Below are positions 11,201 to 63,125 of a DNA stretch of 64,000 nt, piece after piece (the first letter of the stretch is position 1; each line of letters opens with the position of its first letter). The notes under the pieces are model-generated. The model was not told the DNA's origin. It was given only the letters and a program-made list of their open reading frames with translations, and searched no databases. Both the position numbers and the translations under genes were made by a program. The stretch spans positions 45,417-109,416 of IMG/VR virus record IMGVR_UViG_3300025934_000001, one strand, 5' to 3'. The DNA is from a virus. Lineage: Duplodnaviria; Caudoviricetes.

Positions 11201-14200
11201 TACACGTCCCTAGCGGAGGTCAATCGGATGCGGGACCAACCGCCCCCGGCGAGCCCTTCCCGCAAGCCCACAACTTCGTAATCACCGACGAGATCGAACT
11301 CGGCAAGGGGGGCCTGGTCCAGAAGTTCAAGGACAACGTAGCCGCCATCCGGCTGTTGAAGCAGATCGAGAGCGAGAACCGCCGCGCTACGCCGAACGAG
11401 CAGAAGATCCTGGCCAAGTACGTCGGCTGGGGTGGCCTCAAGCAGGTGTTTCCGCCGCCCGGCGGCAAGCTGGCCAAGGGCTGGGAGGCCCGGGTGGCCG
11501 AGGTGCGCGACCTGCTCACCCCGGACGAGCACGAGGCCGCGGCCCGCACCATCCTCGACGCGCACTACACCAGCCGCGAGATCGTCGAGGGCATCTGGGC
11601 CATCGCGCAGCGCCTCGGCTTCACCGGCGGTAAAGTGCTAGAACCGTCGATGGGCAGCGGCAACTTCTTCGGCCTGCTGCCGGCGGACCTGCGCAGCACC
11701 ACCTCGCTCACCGGGGTGGAGCAGGACCACATTACCGCGCGTATCGCCAAGCAGCTGTATCCGGAGGCGGCGGTGCTGGGGCCCGTGGGGTTCCAGGACA
11801 CCAACATGCGCAACGGCCACTTCAACCTGGCCGTGGGCAATCCGCCGTTCGGCCCGCAAACGCTGTTCGACGAGCACAGCCGCCACCTGCGCGGGTTCTC
11901 GCTGCACAACTACTTCTTCGCCAAGGCGATCGACAAGCTCGCCCCCAACGGCATCCTGATCCAGGTGGTGTCGCGCTACCTGATGGATGCGCAGACTTCC
12001 ACCGCGCGCGAGTACCTGGCGCACCGCACCGAACTGCTCGGGGCCATTCGCCTGCCGTGGACCGCGTTCTACGCCAACGCGAATACGGAAGTCGTTACCG
12101 ACATCGTCATCCTGCAGAAGCTGCCGAGCGACCAGTGGGGTGGCGCCGACCAGACCTGGACCCAGACCACCGAAGTGCCGGACCCGCTGGGGGGCAAGCC
12201 GATCCGGGTGAATGCCTACTTCGCCGCGCATCCGGAAATGATCCTCGGCACCATGGATCGCAGCGGCGAAATGCTGCATGAGAACGACGTCACGGTGCAG
12301 CCGCGCAAGAACGAGCCGCTGGCGGTGGGCCTGGCCAACGTCATCGCCACCCTGCCCGAGGACCGCTATACGCGCGGTAAATCAGAGGAAGAGGTGCAGC
12401 ACGAGGCCACCGCGGCGGTGAACGACGACGGCGTACCCACGGGCGACACCGGCTCCTACCACGAGGCTCACGGCTTCCTGCAGCAGGTGGTGCAGAACGC
12501 CGACGGCAGCCTGGGGCTGGTCAAGATCACCGCCGACACGCTGTGGAACGCCGACGCCAAGCCGGAGACCCGGCTCGATCCCAAGACCGGCCAGCGGGTC
12601 ACGGTGGAGCCGGCCAAATGGGGCGTGGAGCGGCTGGCGCGGGTGCGCGCCATGGTCGCCATCAAGGACACCGACCGCGAGTTGCTGCGGGCCGAGGCGA
12701 CCGACGCGCCGCTGGCGCGGCTGTCCTACCTGCGGCAGCAACTGAACGAGCAGTACGACGCCTTCGTCGCCCGCTACGGCTACCTCACCGACCAGGCCAA
12801 CGAGCGGGCCTTCCGCGCCGATCCCGACGCGCCGCTGCTGCTGGCGCTGGAGACCGACTACGACCGCGGAGTCTCGGCCGATCGCGCCAAGACCCTCGGG
12901 GTGCCCGCGCGCAAGCCATCGGCCAAGAAGATGCCGATCTTCACCCAGCGGGTGGTGCTGGCGCGGGTGGCCCCCACCACCGCCGCCAACGTGCGCGACG
13001 GCGCGGCGGTCTCGCTGAACGAGCGCGGGATGCTGGATCCGGCCTACATCGCCCAACTCACCAGCAAGACCCCCAACGCGGTGATCGCCGAGTTGACCGA
13101 CGGTGAAAAGCCGATCGCCTTTTTCGATCCGATCCAGCAGACCTACGAGCCGGCGGCGGAATACCTCTCGGGCAATGTGAAGCGCAAGTACGCCGAGGCG
13201 CTGCAGGCGGGGCTGACCAAGAACGCGGACGCGCTGCGGGCGGTGTTCCCGGCCGATCTCAAGGCCGGCGAGATCGCGGCGCGGCTGGGCTCGCCGTGGA
13301 TCGAGACCGCGGCCTACGAGGGCTTTGCGCAGCACCTGTTCGGACCCACCACCGAGGTGCGGGTGGGCTACCTGCCCGGTACCGGCGGCTTCGCGCTGGC
13401 GCTGGCCGGGGGCGACAAGGCGCTGCGCGAGACCCGCTGGGGCGTCAACCACGTGGCGCTGCTCGACGCCAACGGCCAGGAAAGCGGCGCCTTTGCCGAC
13501 GGCCGCGACGGCGACGACCTGCTCTCGCGCGTGCTCAACAACAAGGATCTCACCGTCTACCACACCGACCAGGACGGCAACCGCTACTCGCACCCGGAGG
13601 TGACGCAGGCCCTCGCTGACCGCGCCGACGAAATGCGGCAGGAATTCGAGCTGTGGATCTTCAAGGATCTGGAGCGGCGCGAGCGTCTGGTGCAGCACTA
13701 CAACGACAACTACAACACCAACGTCAAGCCGGTTTACGACGGGTCCTACCTCACCTTCCCGGGCAAGGTGCCGGACACGGTGATCCGCTTCCGCAAGCAC
13801 CAGAACGACGCGGTCGCCCGCATCATCCGCACCGGCAAGATCCTGCTCGATCACGTGGTGGGCGCGGGCAAGACCTACACCATCATCGCCGCCGCCATGG
13901 AACAGCGCCGCCTCGGCCTCAAGAACAAGCCGCTGGTGGTGGTGCCGAATCATCTGGTCAAGCAGTGGGCGTCGTCGTGGTATCGGCTGTATCCGGCAGC
14001 CAAGATCCTGGCCATGCGCAAGGAGGATTTCTCCAAGGTCAACCGGCAGCGGATGCTGGCGCGCATTGCCTCCGGCAACTGGGACGGCGTGATCTTCGGC
14101 CATTCGTCGTTCGGCTTCATGGCCAACGATCGCTCGCTGGTGCTGGCCGAAATGAGCAAGCAGGTGGAGCAGATCCAGGAGGCCATCCGCGCCGCCCGCG

Positions 14201-24562: not shown

Positions 24563-24578
24563 AGCACGGAATGCACCA
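24563..24578 (-). promoter_or_regulatory. sigma54-type -24/-12 promoter of the PEP-CTERM gene
   Basis: TGGTGCATTCCGTGCT: GG-N10-GC spacing, about 40 bp upstream of the ATG. Confidence 0.55.
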
Positions 24579-25289: not shown

Positions 25290-25624
25290 TGGTTCCAGCA
25301 CTCGGGATCGGCACACGGCGGGCCGCCATGATTGCCGTCACACTTGTCTTGCGCCGCCTTGGGCGCGAGGGCGCGTTCGCAGCGGTCAGCTACCTCTTCC
25401 GCAAGGTCTGGTGCACCGTTGCCATACTGATAGCTGCGCAGTGCGTGGATAGCCGCTTGCAGCGCCGCCGCTACCTCTCCCTGCGCGGCCTCGGCGGGAG
25501 CGGCGTCGTACATGGCACGCCACATATGTGCAATAGGGTCTCCTCCTACATAAGTCGCAGTTGCCCCAGCCTTCTGCATTTCCGCTGTCGGCTCGCGCGG
25601 GCATAGCTTCGTGGGCGCGCTCAT
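25286..25624 (-). CDS. Hypothetical protein containing the repeat (ends ...ECWNQ)
   Basis: ATGA coupling at both ends; second copy ends ...ECWLK at 63880. Confidence 0.65.
   Translation of the reverse strand: MSAPTKLCPREPTAEMQKAGATATYVGGDPIAHMWRAMYDAAPAEAAQGEVAAALQAAIHALRSYQYGNGAPDLAEEVADRCERALAPKAAQDKCDGNHGGPPCADPECWNQ
25295..25406 (+). repeat. Direct repeat, copy 1 (at least 112 bp, exact)
   Basis: CCAGCACTCGGG...TTCCGCAAGG is identical to 63889-64000. Confidence 0.95.
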
Positions 25625-25931: not shown

Positions 25932-26585
25932 TCAGATGGTCTCGACAACCTTCTTCTTCTCGCGCTCGGTCTGCAGCATCATCTCCTGCTCGCAGGAACC
26001 GCAGACCGGCCAGCCGTGCTCCTCGATCTTCTTCGCCGTCATGTAGCTGACGTTGCCGCAGCCGCACTCCAGCTTGTGCAGGCCGTGGCTGGCATTGCGC
26101 TTCTTCGCCACCAGCGCCACCTTGCCGTGCGGGTAGGCGCCAAGCTTGGCGAGGATCGCCGCCATCAGGGCGTGAGCGTCGGCGCGCTCGACCTTGGAGT
26201 GCTTGCCGCCCGTGTAGCCGACGGTCTTGCTGGCCTTGGTGAAGGCGGCGCCGTGACCGGACTTGCAGTCATCGACGGCGTGCAGCAGTTCATGCCCGAG
26301 CACGTCCAGCACTTCCAGCGGCTGGTCGAGCACCGGGGAGATCATCACCTCGTTGACGCCCGCGGCGCTGCGCGCACGGGGCCAGCACTCGCCGATGCGG
26401 CGCCGGGGCGAGCCGCCGCCGGGGAAGCCGCAGGCCATCTTGACGTCGGCCGGGACCACCACGCCGAGCTTGAGCCACGCCGCGCGGATGATGATGGTCG
26501 CCTGCGTCAGCCACTGCTCGCGGTGGAGCACCAGCTTCGGGTCGATCATGCCGCACAGGATTGCTTGCTTTTTCATTTGGGTCAC
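25932..26585 (-). CDS. SprT-like zinc metalloprotease with C-terminal Zn ribbon
   Basis: 'RIGECW', HELLH..., 'GHG..F', C.CG...CGSC. Confidence 0.75.
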   Translation of the reverse strand: MTQMKKQAILCGMIDPKLVLHREQWLTQATIIIRAAWLKLGVVVPADVKMACGFPGGGSPRRRIGECWPRARSAAGVNEVMISPVLDQPLEVLDVLGHELLHAVDDCKSGHGAAFTKASKTVGYTGGKHSKVERADAHALMAAILAKLGAYPHGKVALVAKKRNASHGLHKLECGCGNVSYMTAKKIEEHGWPVCGSCEQEMMLQTEREKKKVVETI

Positions 26586-26651
26586 TTTAGGTCAGTTTAG
26601 GGTAGGTGCAGGCGCCGGGTGTAATGTAGCAGGCGCCTGTACCTTTAGTAA

Positions 26652-26667
26652 AGCGAGAAGCGTGCCA
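26652..26667 (-). promoter_or_regulatory. sigma54-type promoter
   Basis: TGGCACGCTTCTCGCT (GG-N10-GC). Confidence 0.75.
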
Positions 26668-26672
26668 ACGCT

Positions 26673-26897
26673 TTAAAGGCGTTGGCTACAATCGGCAGCA
26701 TCGGCCGCCGCATCGTCAGCTTCAGCCCATGAGGGGCCGTAGTCGGCGTCCTCAAAGGAGTAGCTACAGGGCAGGGGCGGCAGTGGGAGCGGCTGCGGGC
26801 GCTGCGAGTGGAGCAGCAGGATCACGATGATGGTCAGCAGCCCCACCACGGGGCCGCCGAGCCAGAACGCCACGGCGATGCAGAGGGCGTCGATCAT
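26673..26897 (-). CDS. Small membrane protein
   Basis: ATGA coupling; hydrophobic N-terminus. Confidence 0.5.
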   Translation of the reverse strand: MIDALCIAVAFWLGGPVVGLLTIIVILLLHSQRPQPLPLPPLPCSYSFEDADYGPSWAEADDAAADAADCSQRL

Positions 26898-27556
26898 TGA
26901 AATTTCCCGGCGCATACGGGGCCAATCCCCGCCTCGATCGAGGCCGGGTCCGTCAGGTCACGGCCGCAGGAGCAGCAGCGGCCCGAGAGCTTGCCGTGCT
27001 TCACGGCGGCCGCCAGCGGGTCCAGTTCGAACTCGGCCAGCAGGGCCACGATGGCATCCTTGTCGGCGCCGGCCTTGCCGTTCCAGACGAAGGCCTGCGC
27101 GTTGTCGAGCTTGCCGACGAGGCGATCGCTCCACACCAGCCAGCACATGCTGTCCTGATTCTTGCGGGAGATCTTGAGCGAGCCCGCGTGCAGGGTGGCG
27201 TGCTTCTGCATCACCTCGAACAGCTTCGGCACCGGGGTGCCGGCGGCGTAGGCGGGCTTCGCCGGGGCCGCCGGGGTGCCCGGCAGGGTTACCTGCGGCA
27301 GCGGCTTGCGCGGCAGCGACCACTCCACCAGCTTGCCGGCGAAGTCGCGCTGCTTGGCGCTGGCGTAGCCGCCGTTGTCCACCCGGCCAGCGATGTCGCG
27401 GCAGATGGCGCCCTTGCCCATGGCGAAGGCGTCGCGGCGGGCGTCGAAGCGCACCGCGGCGTCGCGCAGTTCGACCGCGCTCGGGCGCTCGCCGGCAACG
27501 ACGGCCAGCGCGGGGGTGATCGAGGGGGCGACGGCGACGGCGTTTTTCCAGTCCAT
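26894..27556 (-). CDS. DUF6011-like Zn-finger protein
   Basis: C-terminal 'GRCCSCGRDLTDPASIEAGIGPVC'; SD GAAGGA. Confidence 0.75.
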   Translation of the reverse strand: MDWKNAVAVAPSITPALAVVAGERPSAVELRDAAVRFDARRDAFAMGKGAICRDIAGRVDNGGYASAKQRDFAGKLVEWSLPRKPLPQVTLPGTPAAPAKPAYAAGTPVPKLFEVMQKHATLHAGSLKISRKNQDSMCWLVWSDRLVGKLDNAQAFVWNGKAGADKDAIVALLAEFELDPLAAAVKHGKLSGRCCSCGRDLTDPASIEAGIGPVCAGKFQ

Positions 27557-27603
27557 GTTCATTCCTTCGTAGTGGGGGTGTAGGGGATGCCTACAACTAC
27601 TAA

Positions 27604-27619
27604 AGCACTTACCGTGCCA
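27604..27619 (-). promoter_or_regulatory. sigma54-type promoter
   Basis: TGGCACGGTAAGTGCT. Confidence 0.75.
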
Positions 27620-27833
27620 GCTTCTGCAGGTACTGCCACTCGCCCACCCACTCCGCGACGGTGAACGTCGTGAGGTGGTTGACGTAGACCGACGACGCCG
27701 GCCACGTGAGGGCGCCGCCGCCGACGAAGTAGAAGTAGCCATTGCCGCGGACTAGCTCCTGCTCGCCGCCCGCGGCCTTGATGGCCGCGTTGACGTTGTT
27801 CAGGGTGACGCGGGGGAGGGTGATCTTTGCCAT
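27609..27833 (-). CDS. Hypothetical early protein
   Basis: GGAG SD; typical codons. Confidence 0.6.
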   Translation of the reverse strand: MAKITLPRVTLNNVNAAIKAAGGEQELVRGNGYFYFVGGGALTWPASSVYVNHLTTFTVAEWVGEWQYLQKLAR

Positions 27834-27899
27834 GCTCGATGCTCCAGTTGAAAGGCAGTTGTTGGAGCCTGCTTTAAAGGCAGGCTCGGGCAACGGTCT

Positions 27900-28268
27900 T
27901 TAGCCCTCGGCGCGCTCCAGCGCCAGATCCTCGTCCTGCCCGTAGGCGACGTAGGCGTCCGAGCCGTACACGGCACGCCCGGCAGCCCAGCGATCGAACG
28001 CCACCGGGAGCTTGCCGCCCGCGACGCGCGCGGTCAGGGCCACGGCCAGCTTGATGGCCTTGGCTTCGGTGGGGCTATCAACGCCGTAACGCTCGGTGCC
28101 GACGAAGAACTGGCGGGTATCACCGAACGAGTTGGCGGCCACCACGAAGAAGGCGACGCCGAACTGCTCGCCGCGGGGGTTGCTCATGTCGGCGTTCTCG
28201 GGGTTGTAGCCGATGCCGACGACGTCCGAGGCGACGTAGAAGTAGGTGTTGGCGGCGGTGAAGTTCAT
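27900..28268 (-). CDS. Hypothetical early protein
   Basis: AAGGA SD; follows a promoter cassette. Confidence 0.7.
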   Translation of the reverse strand: MNFTAANTYFYVASDVVGIGYNPENADMSNPRGEQFGVAFFVVAANSFGDTRQFFVGTERYGVDSPTEAKAIKLAVALTARVAGGKLPVAFDRWAAGRAVYGSDAYVAYGQDEDLALERAEG

Positions 28269-28314
28269 GTTCGTTCCTTGTAGTGGGGGTGTAGGGGTTA
28301 CCTACAAGTACTAA

Positions 28315-28330
28315 AGCGAGAAGCGTGCCA
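28315..28330 (-). promoter_or_regulatory. sigma54-type promoter
   Basis: TGGCACGCTTCTCGCT, identical to the site at 26652. Confidence 0.75.
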
Positions 28331-28332
28331 AC

Positions 28333-28521
28333 CTACTCGATGATGCCGCCGATGTTGGCCGGGGCCACCCGCACCGGCCGCGGGAGCTTGTCCAGCTTGA
28401 CCATCAGGTGCTTGCGGCCGATCGCCGCGACGGCGCCGAAGCGGGCGCCGCGCATCCACAGGTCCGTCGCCGGGTGCAGTTCCACCCGGTTGCCTACTTG
28501 GAAGTTGCGCAGTTCGAACAT
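28333..28521 (-). CDS. Small SH3/KOW-like hypothetical protein
   Basis: GAGGAG SD; 'FQVGNRVELHP..G.V..IG..L.VKLD'. Confidence 0.6.
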   Translation of the reverse strand: MFELRNFQVGNRVELHPATDLWMRGARFGAVAAIGRKHLMVKLDKLPRPVRVAPANIGGIIE

Positions 28522-28595
28522 CTTGTACTCCTCAGTTGACGGCATCACCTACACTGTAGGTGACGCCTTACGTCACATTGTGCCGCCGTAAAGCG

Positions 28596-29273
28596 TCACT
28601 TCTCGATGGCCGCCTGCCGGATGCGCTGCACCGGGTAGGCAAGTTCCTTGCCGCTGTCGTTCAGGTAGACCACGTGCGGCACCACGTTGCCGTTCAGGTG
28701 GGGGCCGCAGCCGCGGGCCATCCGGCTCTCGACGCGCAGGGCCACGCGCTCGGCGCCGAACAGCTTGAAGCGGGTGCCGGGGCCGATCACCTTGCGCGGC
28801 GCCTCGGCCACGCGGGCCACCAGCGCCTGCTTGCCCGTGATCTTGTCGGCGCGGGCAGTGATCGCGGCGCTGACGCGGGCGCATTCCTTGGCCTCGCTTT
28901 CGAGCGCGTGCTGCAGCGTCCGCACGGCGGCCTGCTGGTGCTCGGCCGGGGCGTCGGCGTAGTCCACCATCTCCCACACCGACTTGCCCATCACGCGTTC
29001 CATCTTGCCCGAGCGCGCCCGGCGCGGCAGCATCTCACCGCGCTCGACCGCCACTGCATCGGCGGCGCAGCTACGCGACCGCACCATGAGGCCGTGGGCG
29101 ACCTTGTCGGCCTGCTCGCGGTCCTGCTCCAGCGGCAGGAACGCCGCGCCGGGGCAGACGCCGCGGAAGTAGTGGAACTGGACGTCATAGCCGTGCTTGG
29201 ACAGCTTGCCCTCGGGCAGCGCCTGCAGCTTGCCGCAGACCTGACAGGTGCCGTTGTGAGTTGCCTTGATCAT
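28596..29273 (-). CDS. Hypothetical early protein with Zn-binding N-terminus
   Basis: AGGAG SD; 'GTCQVCG..HGY..GVCPG'. Confidence 0.7.
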   Translation of the reverse strand: MIKATHNGTCQVCGKLQALPEGKLSKHGYDVQFHYFRGVCPGAAFLPLEQDREQADKVAHGLMVRSRSCAADAVAVERGEMLPRRARSGKMERVMGKSVWEMVDYADAPAEHQQAAVRTLQHALESEAKECARVSAAITARADKITGKQALVARVAEAPRKVIGPGTRFKLFGAERVALRVESRMARGCGPHLNGNVVPHVVYLNDSGKELAYPVQRIRQAAIEK

Positions 29274-29316
29274 GGTGCTGACTCCTAATAGATATGGGGG
29301 GATGCACTGCTACATA

Positions 29317-29332
29317 TGCAATGACCATGCCA
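29317..29332 (-). promoter_or_regulatory. sigma54-type promoter (leftward of a divergent pair)
   Basis: TGGCATGGTCATTGCA. Confidence 0.75.
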
Positions 29333-29338
29333 GCCATT

Positions 29339-29354
29339 GCCTACATATGTAGGC
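29339..29354. promoter_or_regulatory. Perfect 16-bp palindrome (operator-like) between the divergent promoters
   Basis: GCCTACATATGTAGGC. Confidence 0.6.
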
Positions 29355-29360
29355 GTTAGC

Positions 29361-29376
29361 TGGCACGGTGCTTGCA
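29361..29376 (+). promoter_or_regulatory. sigma54-type promoter (rightward)
   Basis: TGGCACGGTGCTTGCA, matches consensus TGGCAC-N5-TTGCW. Confidence 0.85.
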
Positions 29377-29415
29377 TGTATGTCTGGACCTCCACCGCAT
29401 CTATTAGGACCGAAC

Positions 29416-29631
29416 ATGAAATTTCACCGTACCTCGCAAAGCTGGGCTGTTGGCGAAACCGTCAAGGTTGGCTTCCTGACCCTGCGCGTGCTCGCCAAGG
29501 TCGCCACGCCGGGCAACTACCTGCCCGACCAGTACGCCCTGACCAACAAGGATGGCAGCCGCTTCTATCGCTTCATCCCGCACAACGGCCTGACGCGCGT
29601 CGAGAACCTCCAGCAAGCGATGGAGTGGTAA
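29416..29631 (+). CDS. Hypothetical early protein
   Basis: AGGA SD; 'W.VGETVKVGFLTLRV..PD.Y.L..Y.F.PHNGL'. Confidence 0.7.
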   Translation: MKFHRTSQSWAVGETVKVGFLTLRVLAKVATPGNYLPDQYALTNKDGSRFYRFIPHNGLTRVENLQQAMEW

Positions 29632-29634
29632 CGC

Positions 29635-29650
29635 TGGCACGGGCCTTGCA
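29635..29650 (+). promoter_or_regulatory. sigma54-type promoter
   Basis: TGGCACGGGCCTTGCA, consensus match. Confidence 0.85.
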
Positions 29651-29690
29651 TTGTAGTCTGTACCTACCACCCCACCTATCAGGACCGAAC

Positions 29691-29915
29691 ATGAACCAAG
29701 CTCACCTCACCAACGCGCCGGCCGGCGGCAAGCTCGTCGCGTGGCACACCTCCCTCGACCTCGCGGCCTACGTGATGGCCGACAAGTCCGAGGTGCTGAT
29801 GATCAACGGCAAGCAGCACGCCTCGTTCGATCACCCGTCGCAGTACGTGATCTTCGTCTGCCGCATGACCCCCAAGGCCGCCGCCAAGTGGCTGGCGCCG
29901 TTCAACGTCAAGTAA
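29691..29915 (+). CDS. Hypothetical early protein
   Basis: Same AGGACCGAACATG leader as 29416. Confidence 0.65.
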   Translation: MNQAHLTNAPAGGKLVAWHTSLDLAAYVMADKSEVLMINGKQHASFDHPSQYVIFVCRMTPKAAAKWLAPFNVK

Positions 29916-29925
29916 GGAGCACTCC

Positions 29926-30135
29926 ATGAAGACCCCCATGCACGTCGAGTTCGGGCGCATGCCCGTGGCCCTGATCAACGGCGTGTTCGCCGTCTACGTG
30001 GTGCGGGGCGACAGCATCATCGCGTCCCGCACCGGCATCGACAGCGCCGCCCGCTGCGCCGAGTTGGCCCAGCAGTACGCCGACAACTACGGCGCCCCGC
30101 TCCGGCCCGAGGCGCGCTTCCTCGATCCGCTGTAA
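29926..30135 (+). CDS. Hypothetical early protein
   Basis: TAAGGAG SD. Confidence 0.65.
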   Translation: MKTPMHVEFGRMPVALINGVFAVYVVRGDSIIASRTGIDSAARCAELAQQYADNYGAPLRPEARFLDPL

Positions 30136-30259
30136 TTCTGCCCGAGCGGGCGCCTACAGTGTAGGGGCTGGCTTTAAAGCCCCCCGCTTGCGCCACCCGG
30201 CCGGCGGGGTTTACCATCCGCCCTCACCTATTCACTGACCTAGATTGGAGTACCGGAAA

Positions 30260-37062: not shown

Positions 37063-37066
37063 GCGA

Positions 37067-37180
37067 GCCTCGCGCACACCCGCGCGTCGATCTATGTATT
37101 GTTTTCCCAATACATATAATACATACATGTATCACATGTACGTGGAAGCGCACACACACTCGCGCGGGTGTGCGCGAGGC
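37067..37180. repeat. 20-bp perfect inverted repeat around an AT-rich palindromic core (candidate ori/pac)
   Basis: GCCTCGCGCACACCCGCGCG (37067-86) and its reverse complement (37161-80); core contains TATGTATTG..CAATACATA and TACATGTA. Confidence 0.75.
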
Positions 37181-37233
37181 CGCGATCGTCGCACGCTTGT
37201 CGGACAGGCGCCGACAGCGGACAATCGCGCCCC

Positions 37234-51799: not shown

Positions 51800-52489
51800 A
51801 TGCATAACGTGATCCAGATCTCGGGCGGCATCGACAGCATGGCAATGCTGATCTACCTGCGCGGCCTGTGGTCCGACTCGGTGGTCATGTGGGGTGACAC
51901 GGGCGCGGCGTATCCCGAGACAACGGAACTGATGGAAGACGTGCGCCGCATGGTGCCGCACTTCCTGCACGTGCAGGGTGACCAGCCGGAAGTGATCCGC
52001 ACCTATGGCTGGCCGGTGGACGTGGTGCCGGTGAGCCACACCCGCTTCGGCGAGCACATCTATGGCCCGCGGCCGATCGTGTTTCAGTCTTATCTCGACT
52101 GCTGCGGCCGTGCGCGCTTCCTGCCACTGCAGCATGCGGTGCAGCGTGTCGGTGCCAAGGTGGTGTACCGCGGCCAGCGCAACAGCGACAAGCGGCGCCC
52201 GCGCATCGAGCATGACAGCATCGATGAGTTCGGCATCACCTACAAGTTTCCGCTGCGTGATTGGTCGCGCGAGCGCGTGTTCGAGTACCTGCAGCAGAAC
52301 GCGCCCGAGCTGGTGGCGGCGTACTACAGCGAAGGCGAGTCCACCAGCCGTGACTGCTGGAGTTGCACGGCGTACCGGGACGACAACGTGGCGCGCGTCG
52401 AGCATCTGCCACCACCGCAGCGGGAACAGGTGGAAACGGTTTTAAAGCAGTGGCGCGACATCGTGCGCGCCGACATGCAAGGAGCGTGA
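51800..52489 (+). CDS. PAPS-reductase-family (PP-loop) protein
   Basis: SGGIDS, DTG.AYPET, CC, RGQR.SD, PL.DWS, DC..CTAY. Confidence 0.8.
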   Translation: MHNVIQISGGIDSMAMLIYLRGLWSDSVVMWGDTGAAYPETTELMEDVRRMVPHFLHVQGDQPEVIRTYGWPVDVVPVSHTRFGEHIYGPRPIVFQSYLDCCGRARFLPLQHAVQRVGAKVVYRGQRNSDKRRPRIEHDSIDEFGITYKFPLRDWSRERVFEYLQQNAPELVAAYYSEGESTSRDCWSCTAYRDDNVARVEHLPPPQREQVETVLKQWRDIVRADMQGA

Positions 52490-60756: not shown

Positions 60757-61034
60757 ACTCCCCAGAGATCCGGCCGCAGCAGCGCGGGCGAGACTTTAAA
60801 GTACTCCGCGATCTGCCGCGCCCGCGGACCCGGCAGCAGGAAGTGGCGCGGTGCAGCCTCGGCCATGCGCTCCCAGCCGTACAGCGTCTGCGCGCGGATG
60901 CCGATCGCGATGGCAAGCTGCCGCTTGCTGCGCTCACCGAGCTTGTTCTCGATGAGCCAACTGAGCGGATGCTTGTTGGTGTTGCTGCCCCCCGGCATCT
61001 TGCGGGGGAGCTTCACGGGTTTTTGCGTTTTCAT
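60753..61034 (-). CDS. Cro/YdaS-like HTH regulator
   Basis: 'RQLAIAIGIRAQTLYGW', C-terminal 'LRPDLW'. Confidence 0.75.
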   Translation of the reverse strand: MKTQKPVKLPRKMPGGSNTNKHPLSWLIENKLGERSKRQLAIAIGIRAQTLYGWERMAEAAPRHFLLPGPRARQIAEYFKVSPALLRPDLWGV

Positions 61035-62437
61035 GCTTGTCCTTTCAGGACGTTGAGGATGGCTTGCTGGGCACTCGACTTCGCCTGCAGCGCGTCGAGG
61101 ATGGCGCCGTCCACCGTGTCGCGAGCGACGATGTGGTGAATGACGACGGTCTTGGTCTGACCCTGCCGGTACACCCGGCGGTTCAGTTGGTCATACTCTT
61201 CAAGGTTCCACGTGAGGCCGAACCATGCCACGCAGTGGCCGCCGGCCTGCAGGTTCAAGCCGTGCGCCACCGACGTCGGATGCACCAGCAGCACCGGCAA
61301 CTCGCCGCGGTTCCAGCGCGCCACGACGTCATCCGCGGCCTTCGCCGACACGCCGCCGCCGAGGTACGGGATGGCGGCATCGCCGAGGCGCGCACGGATG
61401 GCTTCCACTTCGTGCAGGAACGACACCGCGACCAGCAGCGGGGTGCCCTGCTGCTCTTCCACCAGATCCGCCAGCGCATCGAGCTTCGCTGTGTGGATCG
61501 CGACGGTCGCCTGCGTGCGCTCTTCAGTCTCGGCGTAGGCCGTGCCGTTCACCAGTTGGCGCAGCTTCATCAGGCACGCGGCCGCGTTGGCCGGGGCCAT
61601 GGTGAGGCCGCCACCCGTGGCGAGGAACAGATCCTTGGCGAGCGTGTTGTACTGCGCGCGGGCCGGCGCCGGAAGCTCCACCTCGATGCGATTGAAGATC
61701 AGCTTCGGCATGGTCAGGTGATCCTCGGCCTTGAGGCGCAGGGCCATGCCGTTGACGCGGGCGTAGACGCGATCGGCCGCATCCTTCTTCGGGTGCCATT
61801 TCTGGATCACGCGGCCGCCGCCGACGTGGACGGACTCGGGCATGCAGAACTCGCGGCGGAAGCGGGTGATGAACTTGCCCAGCGCAGCGCCCTCGTCGCA
61901 GATGTAGGCCTGCGAGAACAGATCCTCGATCGACTGCGGCGTCGGGGTGCCGGTCAGGATGTAGCGGCGGGCGAACTTGCCGAGGTGCTCACGCAGTGCC
62001 TTGAAGCGCACGCTCGACGGGTTCTTGAAGCGGGTGGACTCGTCAACGACGAGCATCTCGGGGGCGCGCTCGCCGAGCAGCGACCACGTGGCGGCCTCGA
62101 ACAGCCAAGCGACATTCTCGCAGTTCACCACGTAGATGTCAGCGTCGGCCTTCAACGCCGCTTCGCGCTGCTTGGCGCTGCCGAGCACCAGCGACACCTT
62201 GAGATGGGCGAAATCGGCCCACTTGGCGACCTCGGCCGGCCACACCAGCCGGGCCGGGCGCAGGGGAGCGATCACCAGCATGCGCTGCACCGCGCCGGCT
62301 TCCTTCATCACAAGGAAGGCGCCCAGCGACATCGAAGTCTTGCCGAGGCCCGGATCAAGCAGCAGGGCGCCGTTGGAACGGCCGGCGATAAGCTGGATGC
62401 CGCTGATCTGGTACGGGTGGGGCGTGTAGGGGATCAT
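61031..62437 (-). CDS. SNF2-family helicase
   Basis: PGLGKT, VVDEST, LTGTP, HGLNLQ, Q..RR.YRQGQ. Confidence 0.9.
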   Translation of the reverse strand: MIPYTPHPYQISGIQLIAGRSNGALLLDPGLGKTSMSLGAFLVMKEAGAVQRMLVIAPLRPARLVWPAEVAKWADFAHLKVSLVLGSAKQREAALKADADIYVVNCENVAWLFEAATWSLLGERAPEMLVVDESTRFKNPSSVRFKALREHLGKFARRYILTGTPTPQSIEDLFSQAYICDEGAALGKFITRFRREFCMPESVHVGGGRVIQKWHPKKDAADRVYARVNGMALRLKAEDHLTMPKLIFNRIEVELPAPARAQYNTLAKDLFLATGGGLTMAPANAAACLMKLRQLVNGTAYAETEERTQATVAIHTAKLDALADLVEEQQGTPLLVAVSFLHEVEAIRARLGDAAIPYLGGGVSAKAADDVVARWNRGELPVLLVHPTSVAHGLNLQAGGHCVAWFGLTWNLEEYDQLNRRVYRQGQTKTVVIHHIVARDTVDGAILDALQAKSSAQQAILNVLKGQA

Positions 62438-62477
62438 GTTCTGTCTCGGGTAGTGGGGTGTAGGTAATGACTACTAA

Positions 62478-62493
62478 AGCGATTATCGTGCCA
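62478..62493 (-). promoter_or_regulatory. sigma54-type promoter
   Basis: TGGCACGATAATCGCT. Confidence 0.75.
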
Positions 62494-62707
62494 AGGAGCG
62501 GATGGTGTTCCAGCCGCGGGCCTGCCCGGCACTGCGGCGGGGCGCGACGCGCGGGCCGAGCGCGGGGTGGGCGACGATGAAGGCCGACACCGCGGCGCTG
62601 GCGTCGATCGAGGCCTGCAGGGTAACGGGCGTCGGGGTGGCGCGGGCGACATCGCGGGCGGCGGCTGCGGTGGTGATCAGGGCGTCGAGTTGGCTGCGGA
62701 GGTTCAT
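62483..62707 (-). CDS. Hypothetical protein
   Basis: Same CCGAGACAGA.CATG leader as the helicase gene. Confidence 0.55.
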   Translation of the reverse strand: MNLRSQLDALITTAAAARDVARATPTPVTLQASIDASAAVSAFIVAHPALGPRVAPRRSAGQARGWNTIRSLAR

Positions 62708-62747
62708 GGTCTGTCTCGGTTGTAAGGGGGTGCCTACAGTACTTTAA

Positions 62748-62763
62748 AGCGATTATCGTGCCA
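62748..62763 (-). promoter_or_regulatory. sigma54-type promoter
   Basis: TGGCACGATAATCGCT, identical to the site at 62478. Confidence 0.75.
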
Positions 62764-62801
62764 GCCGGGGTGCCGGGCCAGCCTTCATTGTAGGTGACGC
62801 C

Positions 62802-63125
62802 TTACGGCAGATCAAGCCCTATTTGGACAACCGGCGTCGGCCGCGGGCGCCCCATCTGATCGGCCAGCAGATCCTTGAAGCGGGCGAAGCTGCGGATCAC
62901 CTCCACCGGGTGGCCGAGCTTCGCCAGCTTGCGGAACTGGTGCGCCTGCCGGGCGCTCACCTCGCCGTCGGGCGACTTGAACTCGACCAGCCATGTGCGA
63001 CCGCCCGGCAGCAGGAACACCCGATCGGGCAGGCCCACCACGAAGCCGCCGAGCTTGATCGGCTGGCAGCCCATCCGCACCGCCCGCGCGCAGCAGCGGC
63101 GCTCGGTGTCCCCCTCAAGAGACAC
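62802..63125 (-). CDS. VRR-NUC domain nuclease
   Basis: 'E..E..G.PDR..LPGG...VEFK..G..S..Q'. Confidence 0.85.
   Translation of the reverse strand: MSLEGDTERRCCARAVRMGCQPIKLGGFVVGLPDRVFLLPGGRTWLVEFKSPDGEVSARQAHQFRKLAKLGHPVEVIRSFARFKDLLADQMGRPRPTPVVQIGLDLP

Follow-up and report, generated by a model that had tools for sequence, protein, structure and literature searches.

Genomic context of the promoter array

The window analysed here is a stretch of 64,000 nucleotides (nt) forming the final 64 kb of the 109,416-base-pair (bp) viral record IMGVR_UViG_3300025934_000001 (Caudoviricetes), and it carries an array of eight sites resembling the -24/-12 promoters of bacterial sigma-54 (RpoN). All eight lie inside a phage unit of 38,594 bp (25295–63888), which has end repeats and its own terminase, portal and major head genes. 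The unit is bounded by near-identical repeats of ~210 bp (141 bp exact), whose copies start at 25295 and 63889; the first occupies 25295–25505, and the second continues over the end of the record into its start. The leftward arm of the unit holds small genes without known function together with genes for a DUF6011 protein, an SprT-like protein and an SNF2 helicase, while the replication genes encode a DUF2800 nuclease, a family A polymerase and a primase-helicase, and the virion and lysis genes a terminase, portal, major head protein, amidase and tail fibre. A VRR-NUC nuclease is encoded in addition to the SNF2 helicase.

The sites listed in the earlier note on this DNA are real, but they are part of the self-contained unit at 25295–63888 and not of a single 109-kb phage. 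The end repeats, the complete gene set, the confinement of the 8-bp palindrome CTTTAAAG to the unit (21 copies between 25887 and 62749, none in the rest of the record) and the similar size of two contigs that carry relatives of a 225-amino-acid (aa) protein of the leftward arm (38,591 and 38,318 bp) indicate that the record most probably joins two phages sharing one gene, of 70.8 kb and 38.6 kb, as an assembly chimera or a cointegrate. With neither an integrase nor a resolvase encoded in the record, the 38.6-kb phage is probably virulent; no integrase was found in three relatives either. The phage, uncultured and from soil, is probably podovirus-like, and its genome has a G+C content of 67%. 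By portal protein, the closest cultured phage is Myxococcus phage Mx9, with 39% identity; protein searches against cultured phages returned distant relatives only, at <40% identity, and a DNA search of the region against cultured phages gave no match.

Sigma-54-type sites and their statistics

The sites are named below after the T of their TGG motif. The leftward arm begins with the site at 29316–29332 (minus strand; TGGCATG-GTCAT-TGC-AT), which precedes the 225-aa zinc-ribbon gene, the first of the arm. It is followed on the same strand by the sites at 28314–28330, before a 122-aa gene (27900–28268) whose ATG lies 62 nt from the T of TGG; at 27603–27619, before the DUF6011 gene (26894–27556); and at 26651–26667, before the 214-aa SprT-like gene (25932–26576), with a CTTTAAAG palindrome 3 nt upstream. 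Two sites on the plus strand match the full consensus, namely that at 29361–29377 (TGGCACG-GTGC-TTGCA), which is divergent from the 29332 site and precedes a 71-aa gene (29416–29631), and that at 29635–29651, before a 74-aa gene (29691–29915). The remaining two, at 62747–62763 and 62477–62493 (both minus strand), stand before a further 74-aa gene (62483–62707) and the SNF2-family helicase gene (61031–62437), respectively.

A pattern search recovered all eight of the TGGCA(C/T)G sites listed in the earlier note, with the minus-strand coordinates corrected by one base, and the GG-N10-GC spacing is exact in 8/8 sites of the window and in 23/23 of the clade described below. The placement claimed there, just upstream of a gene, likewise holds for 8/8, with the start codon 55–91 nt downstream: the distance from the T of TGG is 55–63 nt at seven sites and 91 nt at one, and a purine-rich ribosome-binding stretch precedes each of these start codons. 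The sites are either intergenic or overlap the final codons of the preceding gene. At two of them, 27619 and 62493, the -24 element doubles as Leu-Ala-Arg codons of the upstream gene, and the stop codon falls within the promoter spacer. Two sites match the published consensus TGGCACG-N4-TTGCW in full, and the remaining six fall short of it by 1–2 bases.

With 100 shuffles as the null, the short search pattern TGGCAYG-N6-GC alone was not above chance (8 seen against 5.1 expected, with at least 8 in 12 of the 100 shuffles). The 17-nt pattern common to all eight sites, TGGCAYG-N5-BGC-WT, was seen 8 times against 0.31 expected, with a shuffle maximum of 2 (n = 100). Because this pattern was derived post hoc from the eight sites, it was checked in other DNA, where it had 0 matches in the other 70.7 kb of the record and 0 in 552 kb of other phage and metagenome DNA. 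Two pairs of sites are identical across the 17 nt. A weaker GG-N10-GC site (TGGTGC...GTGCT) is present in the larger phage at 24563–24580 (minus strand), with a T-rich terminator before it and a gene after it.

Conservation among related phages

Relatives were fetched by protein searches blind to the motif, yielding four genomes with 52–69% protein identity: L001; L014, of which L003, L004 and L015 are copies or near-copies; L012, of which L013 is a copy; and L016. These four genomes contain 4, 4, 5 and 2 sites of the same type, before the same genes as in the window, and a scan of the whole 37.5-kb record of L001 revealed no further sites beyond the leftward arm. Orthologues of the 29332 site stand before the same gene in L014, L012 and L016; those of the 27619 site occur in L001, L014, L012 and L016, with differing spacers; and those of the 26667 site and of the 62493 site, the latter before the SNF2 gene, are found in L001, L014 and L012. 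More distant homologues of the 225-aa gene lie in other contexts and have no such sites.

When the 23 sites from the five genomes are aligned on the motif, the information is concentrated in two blocks, GC-TGGCAYG and TYGC-WTTA, and is low in the spacer and the upstream flank. TGGCA is complete in 22/23 sites, as is the G after CAY, while GC and the W after it are present in 23/23; the second base past the GC is T in all sites, and an A/T-rich stretch follows the GC. Selection was assessed from pairwise differences within four sets of orthologous promoters, with important and unimportant positions taken from work on E. coli (PMC4591121), in which Bonocora and colleagues found that the same contrast revealed selection on true sigma-54 sites. 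Orthologues differ at 0/112 (0%) of the GG/GC positions compared and at 3/224 (1.3%) of the eight core positions; the corresponding values are 96/168 (57%) in the spacer and 221/392 (56%) in the upstream flank. Such selective conservation of GG and GC is, at the level of sequence, the sigma-54 signature. Both the statistics of the 17-nt pattern and the conservation among orthologues thus support the sigma-54-type nature first suggested for the sites, which very probably are bound by the sigma-54 holoenzyme and used as promoters.

Activator and transcription machinery

The AAA+ ATPase domain of bacterial enhancer-binding proteins (bEBPs), PF00158, was not found in a six-frame search of the entire 109-kb record or in three related viral records, and no GAFTGA-like motif was found in the record, in agreement with the earlier note, which had seen no such protein encoded. 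The record also contains no match to the sigma-54 domains PF04552, PF04963 and PF00309 or to the RpoN box, and none to sigma-70 region 2 (PF04542). The T7-type RNA polymerase family PF00940 had no match in the record either, which is a weak negative, as control genomes also gave none. The three relatives, too, encode neither a sigma-54 domain nor an RNA polymerase of phage type. A single match to Sigma70_r4 (PF04545; E 9.8e-14) lies outside the window, in the larger phage (record positions 13323–13475, minus strand); this helix-turn-helix gene could encode a sigma-like regulator or a small terminase subunit. The annotated large proteins of the 38.6-kb unit comprise polymerase A, primase-helicase, terminase, portal, head and tail fibre, with no sigma-like or polymerase-like transcription gene among them. 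The lack of a phage RNA polymerase or sigma factor points to dependence on the host polymerase.

A k-mer search for an activator site common to the upstream regions returned only the GCGTCACCTACA element and CTTTAAAG, both at variable distances. On the host side, RpoN is encoded in 3/4 of the bacterial bins holding contigs with related capsid genes; two of these RpoN-bearing bins are labelled Burkholderiales or Burkholderiaceae, and one Gammaproteobacteria.

Sigma-70-type promoters and leader features

A sigma-70-type promoter (TTGCGC-18 nt-TACCAT) is predicted at 30188–30217 (plus strand), before the DUF2800 nuclease gene and the replication arm. It scores 8/12, under the tool cut-off of 9, and matching boxes are present in L001, L004 and L012. 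The replication and structural arm thus appears to start from a promoter of sigma-70 type, with no sigma-54 site at its head. Between the primase-helicase gene and the packaging genes lies an A/T-rich non-coding stretch with repeated ATACAT/ATGTAT (37063–37233), a candidate origin or strong promoter region.

Another predicted sigma-70-type promoter (TTGATC-17-TACAAT; 62787–62815, minus strand) is situated 23 nt upstream of the 62763 sigma-54-type site. The tandem is kept in L012 (TTGACC-17-TACAAT) and L001 (TTGACG-17-TACAAT), and a TACTAT box is found at the matching place in L014. By analogy with overlapping promoters in E. coli, the sigma-54 and sigma-70 forms of the polymerase should compete with or exclude each other at this tandem. 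A conserved element, CGTAAGGCGTCACCTACART, is located at 28553–28590 and 62787–62815 (both minus strand), with the inverted repeat TGACG-N5-CGTCA within the sigma-70-type spacer; it may be a regulator site.

The transcription start of sigma-54 promoters is predicted at 19 nt from the motif centre (PMC4591121). Applied here, this rule places the start sites just 5' of conserved stem-loops. Leaders are predicted to measure 26–39 nt, several of them opening with a stem-loop. The leader hairpin of the 26667 promoter (26609–26639, minus strand) begins ~3 nt past the predicted start site and has a predicted energy of -16 to -20.5 kcal/mol in all four orthologues. Compensatory changes keep its stem paired, CAGGCGCC/GGCGCCTG here being replaced by CAGGCGGGG/CCCCGCCTG in L014.

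Several repeats accompany the promoters. Between the divergent sites 29332 and 29361, the palindrome CCTACATATGTAGG (29340–29353) has its centre ~40 nt upstream of both predicted starts; L001 and L012 have it as well, upstream of the orthologous promoter, and only half of it survives in L014. Inverted repeats of the CACCTACA/TGTAGGTG type occur between divergent promoters, after gene ends and in leaders (28542–28566, 29340–29353, 30153–30165, and the leaders of the 27619, 28330 and 62763 sites). They look like hairpins or operators, and hairpins fit better than a dimer-binding site, because the loop varies from 1 to 12 nt across the relatives. CTTTAAAG or TTTAAAG is found within ~40 nt of 11/23 sites; about 9 of the 21 CTTTAAAG copies are intergenic, some of them inside hairpin loops, and dispersed copies are present in L001 too.

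The region 29354–30152, between two CCTACA-NN-TGTAGG palindromes, contains three small rightward genes and two sigma-54-type promoters. L001 is without the three genes and their two sites, and the palindrome there abuts the promoter region of the replication arm, as if 29354–30152 had been inserted or deleted as a cassette.

Genes of the leftward arm and a gene among the virion genes

The 225-aa gene (28596–29273, minus strand) encodes a protein that carries a zinc ribbon at its N-terminus and an SH3-like barrel at its C-terminus, along with long helices. The barrel matches the RNA-polymerase-binding N-domain of CarD/CdnL weakly (E ~0.4), at the same level as other SH3-like folds; the folded protein had no match among solved structures at E <= 0.001, and in a structure atlas it showed low TM scores to CarD/TRCF domains only. 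Its homologue in the YuA-like phage PAE1 was considered as a link to sigma-54 and rejected, no sigma-54-like site being found near the homologue in PAE1 or in Xanthomonas phage XcP1. The 214-aa protein behind the 26667 site is grouped with SprT-like proteins in the structure atlas. These comparisons singled out no activator among the products of the genes behind the promoters, most of which have no known function. Among the virion genes of the 38.6-kb phage, a gene at 51800–52489 encodes a PAPS-reductase domain and may belong to a DNA modification function.

Proposed mechanism and alternative explanations

We propose that the host RNA polymerase carrying sigma-54 (RpoN) recognises the eight sites, each of which would head a short transcription unit of accessory genes or genes of DNA metabolism, mostly in the leftward arm. 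Since no enhancer-binding ATPase is encoded by the phage, promoter opening would most likely rely on a host activator, acting from weak or unrecognised sites or from solution, and this need for a host activator would tie expression of the leftward arm to the physiology of the host cell. Transcription of the replication and structural arm would begin at the sigma-70-type promoter. This reading as a whole, i.e., sigma-54 promoters of the host polymerase activated by a host enhancer-binding protein, is given a probability of roughly 0.55. Of the earlier picture of an early region driven by a sigma-54 array, the array stands, as the leftward arm and the three rightward genes lie behind such sites; "early" was itself inferred, and the replication and structural arm is predicted to be of sigma-70 type.

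Several points weigh against the proposed mechanism. The T of the -12 TGC, which is important in E. coli, is present in just 12/23 sites. Upstream of the sites, neither an activator-binding site nor a palindrome was found at a fixed distance, no IHF-like site was found, and the DNA is mostly coding. The phage was linked to the RpoN-bearing bins by metagenome binning alone. Moreover, for a lytic phage it would be odd to let a host activator decide whether a gene arm is expressed, so that a solution encoded by the phage itself is conceivable. To our knowledge, no activator of sigma-54 outside the AAA+ class is known. Opening by such a phage factor, e.g., a small protein relieving the region I block, or a bypass of activation via the -12 region or the DNA state, is unlikely, although it would account for the lack of a bEBP in the phage and its relatives and of an enhancer-like site at a fixed distance, and many leftward genes are without known function. 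The -12 element deviates from TGCA at most sites, and bypass transcription has been tied to non-consensus -12 sequences and to DNA supercoiling (PMC4551910); the T two bases past the GC is invariant and part of an A/T-rich stretch in a genome of 67% G+C, and the first leftward gene encodes an SH3-like barrel whose weak matches include the CarD/CdnL N-domain. However, the -12 GC, which is linked to tight repression, is invariant at these sites, and bypass is rare in vivo in E. coli (PMC4551910); the CarD-like match, at E ~0.4, stands among generic SH3-like folds, and the homologue in PAE1 has no sigma-54-like site nearby. A broader version, in which sigma-54 promoters throughout a clade of lytic soil phages work in the absence of an AAA+ activator, through a small unlocking protein or through promoter or DNA features that permit bypass, is rated slightly less probable again.

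The sites could also serve as docking sites, at which a closed sigma-54 complex blocks or competes with the sigma-70 polymerase as a repressor, insulator or roadblock. The 62763 site, 23 nt downstream of a conserved sigma-70-type promoter, is where this idea fits best, as the two footprints should overlap, and in E. coli the sigma-54 holoenzyme represses overlapping sigma-70 promoters (PMC4551910), with many sigma-54 sites being transcriptionally silent (PMC4591121). The roadblock or decoy role raised in the earlier note is thus supported at this one place and not elsewhere: most sites have no sigma-70-type promoter close upstream, and a roadblock would need neither the single orientation and the small range of distances to a start codon that has a ribosome-binding site, seen at 23/23 sites, nor the hairpin at the expected RNA 5' end after several of them. 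As an account of the array, docking is improbable. Less probable still is that the motif merely resembles the sigma-54 consensus and is the promoter of an unrecognised factor specific to the phage (a divergent sigma or a polymerase modifier, for instance). Many proteins of the 38.6-kb phage are unannotated, and YuA is described in PMC10914365 as having a phage-specific promoter motif, distinct and highly conserved, whose use requires phage factors; but the match here spans both blocks and extends to the bases flanking them, the spacing is exactly that of the sigma-54 consensus, and the 38.6-kb unit contains no sigma-like or polymerase-like gene, the lone Sigma70_r4 match lying in the other phage. 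That the sites match by chance, or are carried along in a duplicated leader cassette without a role of their own, is scarcely credible. The short pattern alone is indeed not above chance, and the two pairs of sites identical over 17 nt suggest local duplication, but the count of 8 against 0.31 expected for the 17-nt pattern and a core that is invariant among orthologues whose spacers differ at 57% of positions argue against both.

Comparison with known systems and significance

The sites resemble the sigma-54 (RpoN) -24/-12 promoters of bacteria, as represented by the E. coli sites from chromatin immunoprecipitation sequencing (PMC4591121), in the invariant GG and GC with 10 nt between them, in the two blocks TGGCACG and TGC, and in the variable spacer. 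The likeness includes a position 26–65 nt before the start codon and conservation confined to the important positions. Unlike the E. coli sites, those described here form a phage-borne array of 4–8 per 38-kb genome, without a cognate activator gene or a recognisable enhancer or IHF site; C or G often replaces the T of TGC, and the T two bases past the GC is invariant. The competition between overlapping sigma-70 and sigma-54 promoters in E. coli (PMC4551910) has its counterpart in the promoter at 62815–62787 and the 62763 site, with the difference that the arrangement concerns one conserved position per genome and not the whole array, and that competition is predicted only.

Among phages, Pseudomonas phage YuA (Ceyssens et al. 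2008, as cited in PMC10914365) had rightly been named as a precedent. According to that source, YuA has no polymerase of its own and uses both sigma-70-type and sigma-54-type promoters, one of which, P015, is associated with a sigma-54-like region and has a mapped start site. It is also the only case of phage use of a sigma-54-like promoter found in the literature that could be searched. In contrast to the one sigma-54-like promoter reported there, a whole arm is built from such promoters here, and the virion genes of the two phages are unrelated.

What is new is the comparative test of the motif, the mixed sigma-70-type and sigma-54-type design, the conserved tandem, and the assignment of the array to a 38.6-kb phage within a composite record. 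Of the bacterial promoter classes, only that of sigma-54 stays entirely silent unless an activator driven by ATP is present. By placing a gene arm on sigma-54 without an activator of its own, a virulent phage would either read the state of the host and gate its infection by it, or carry an opening route of an unknown kind. The sites are compact, conserved and readily testable by reporter fusions; either of the two routes, if true, would be new for phage biology.

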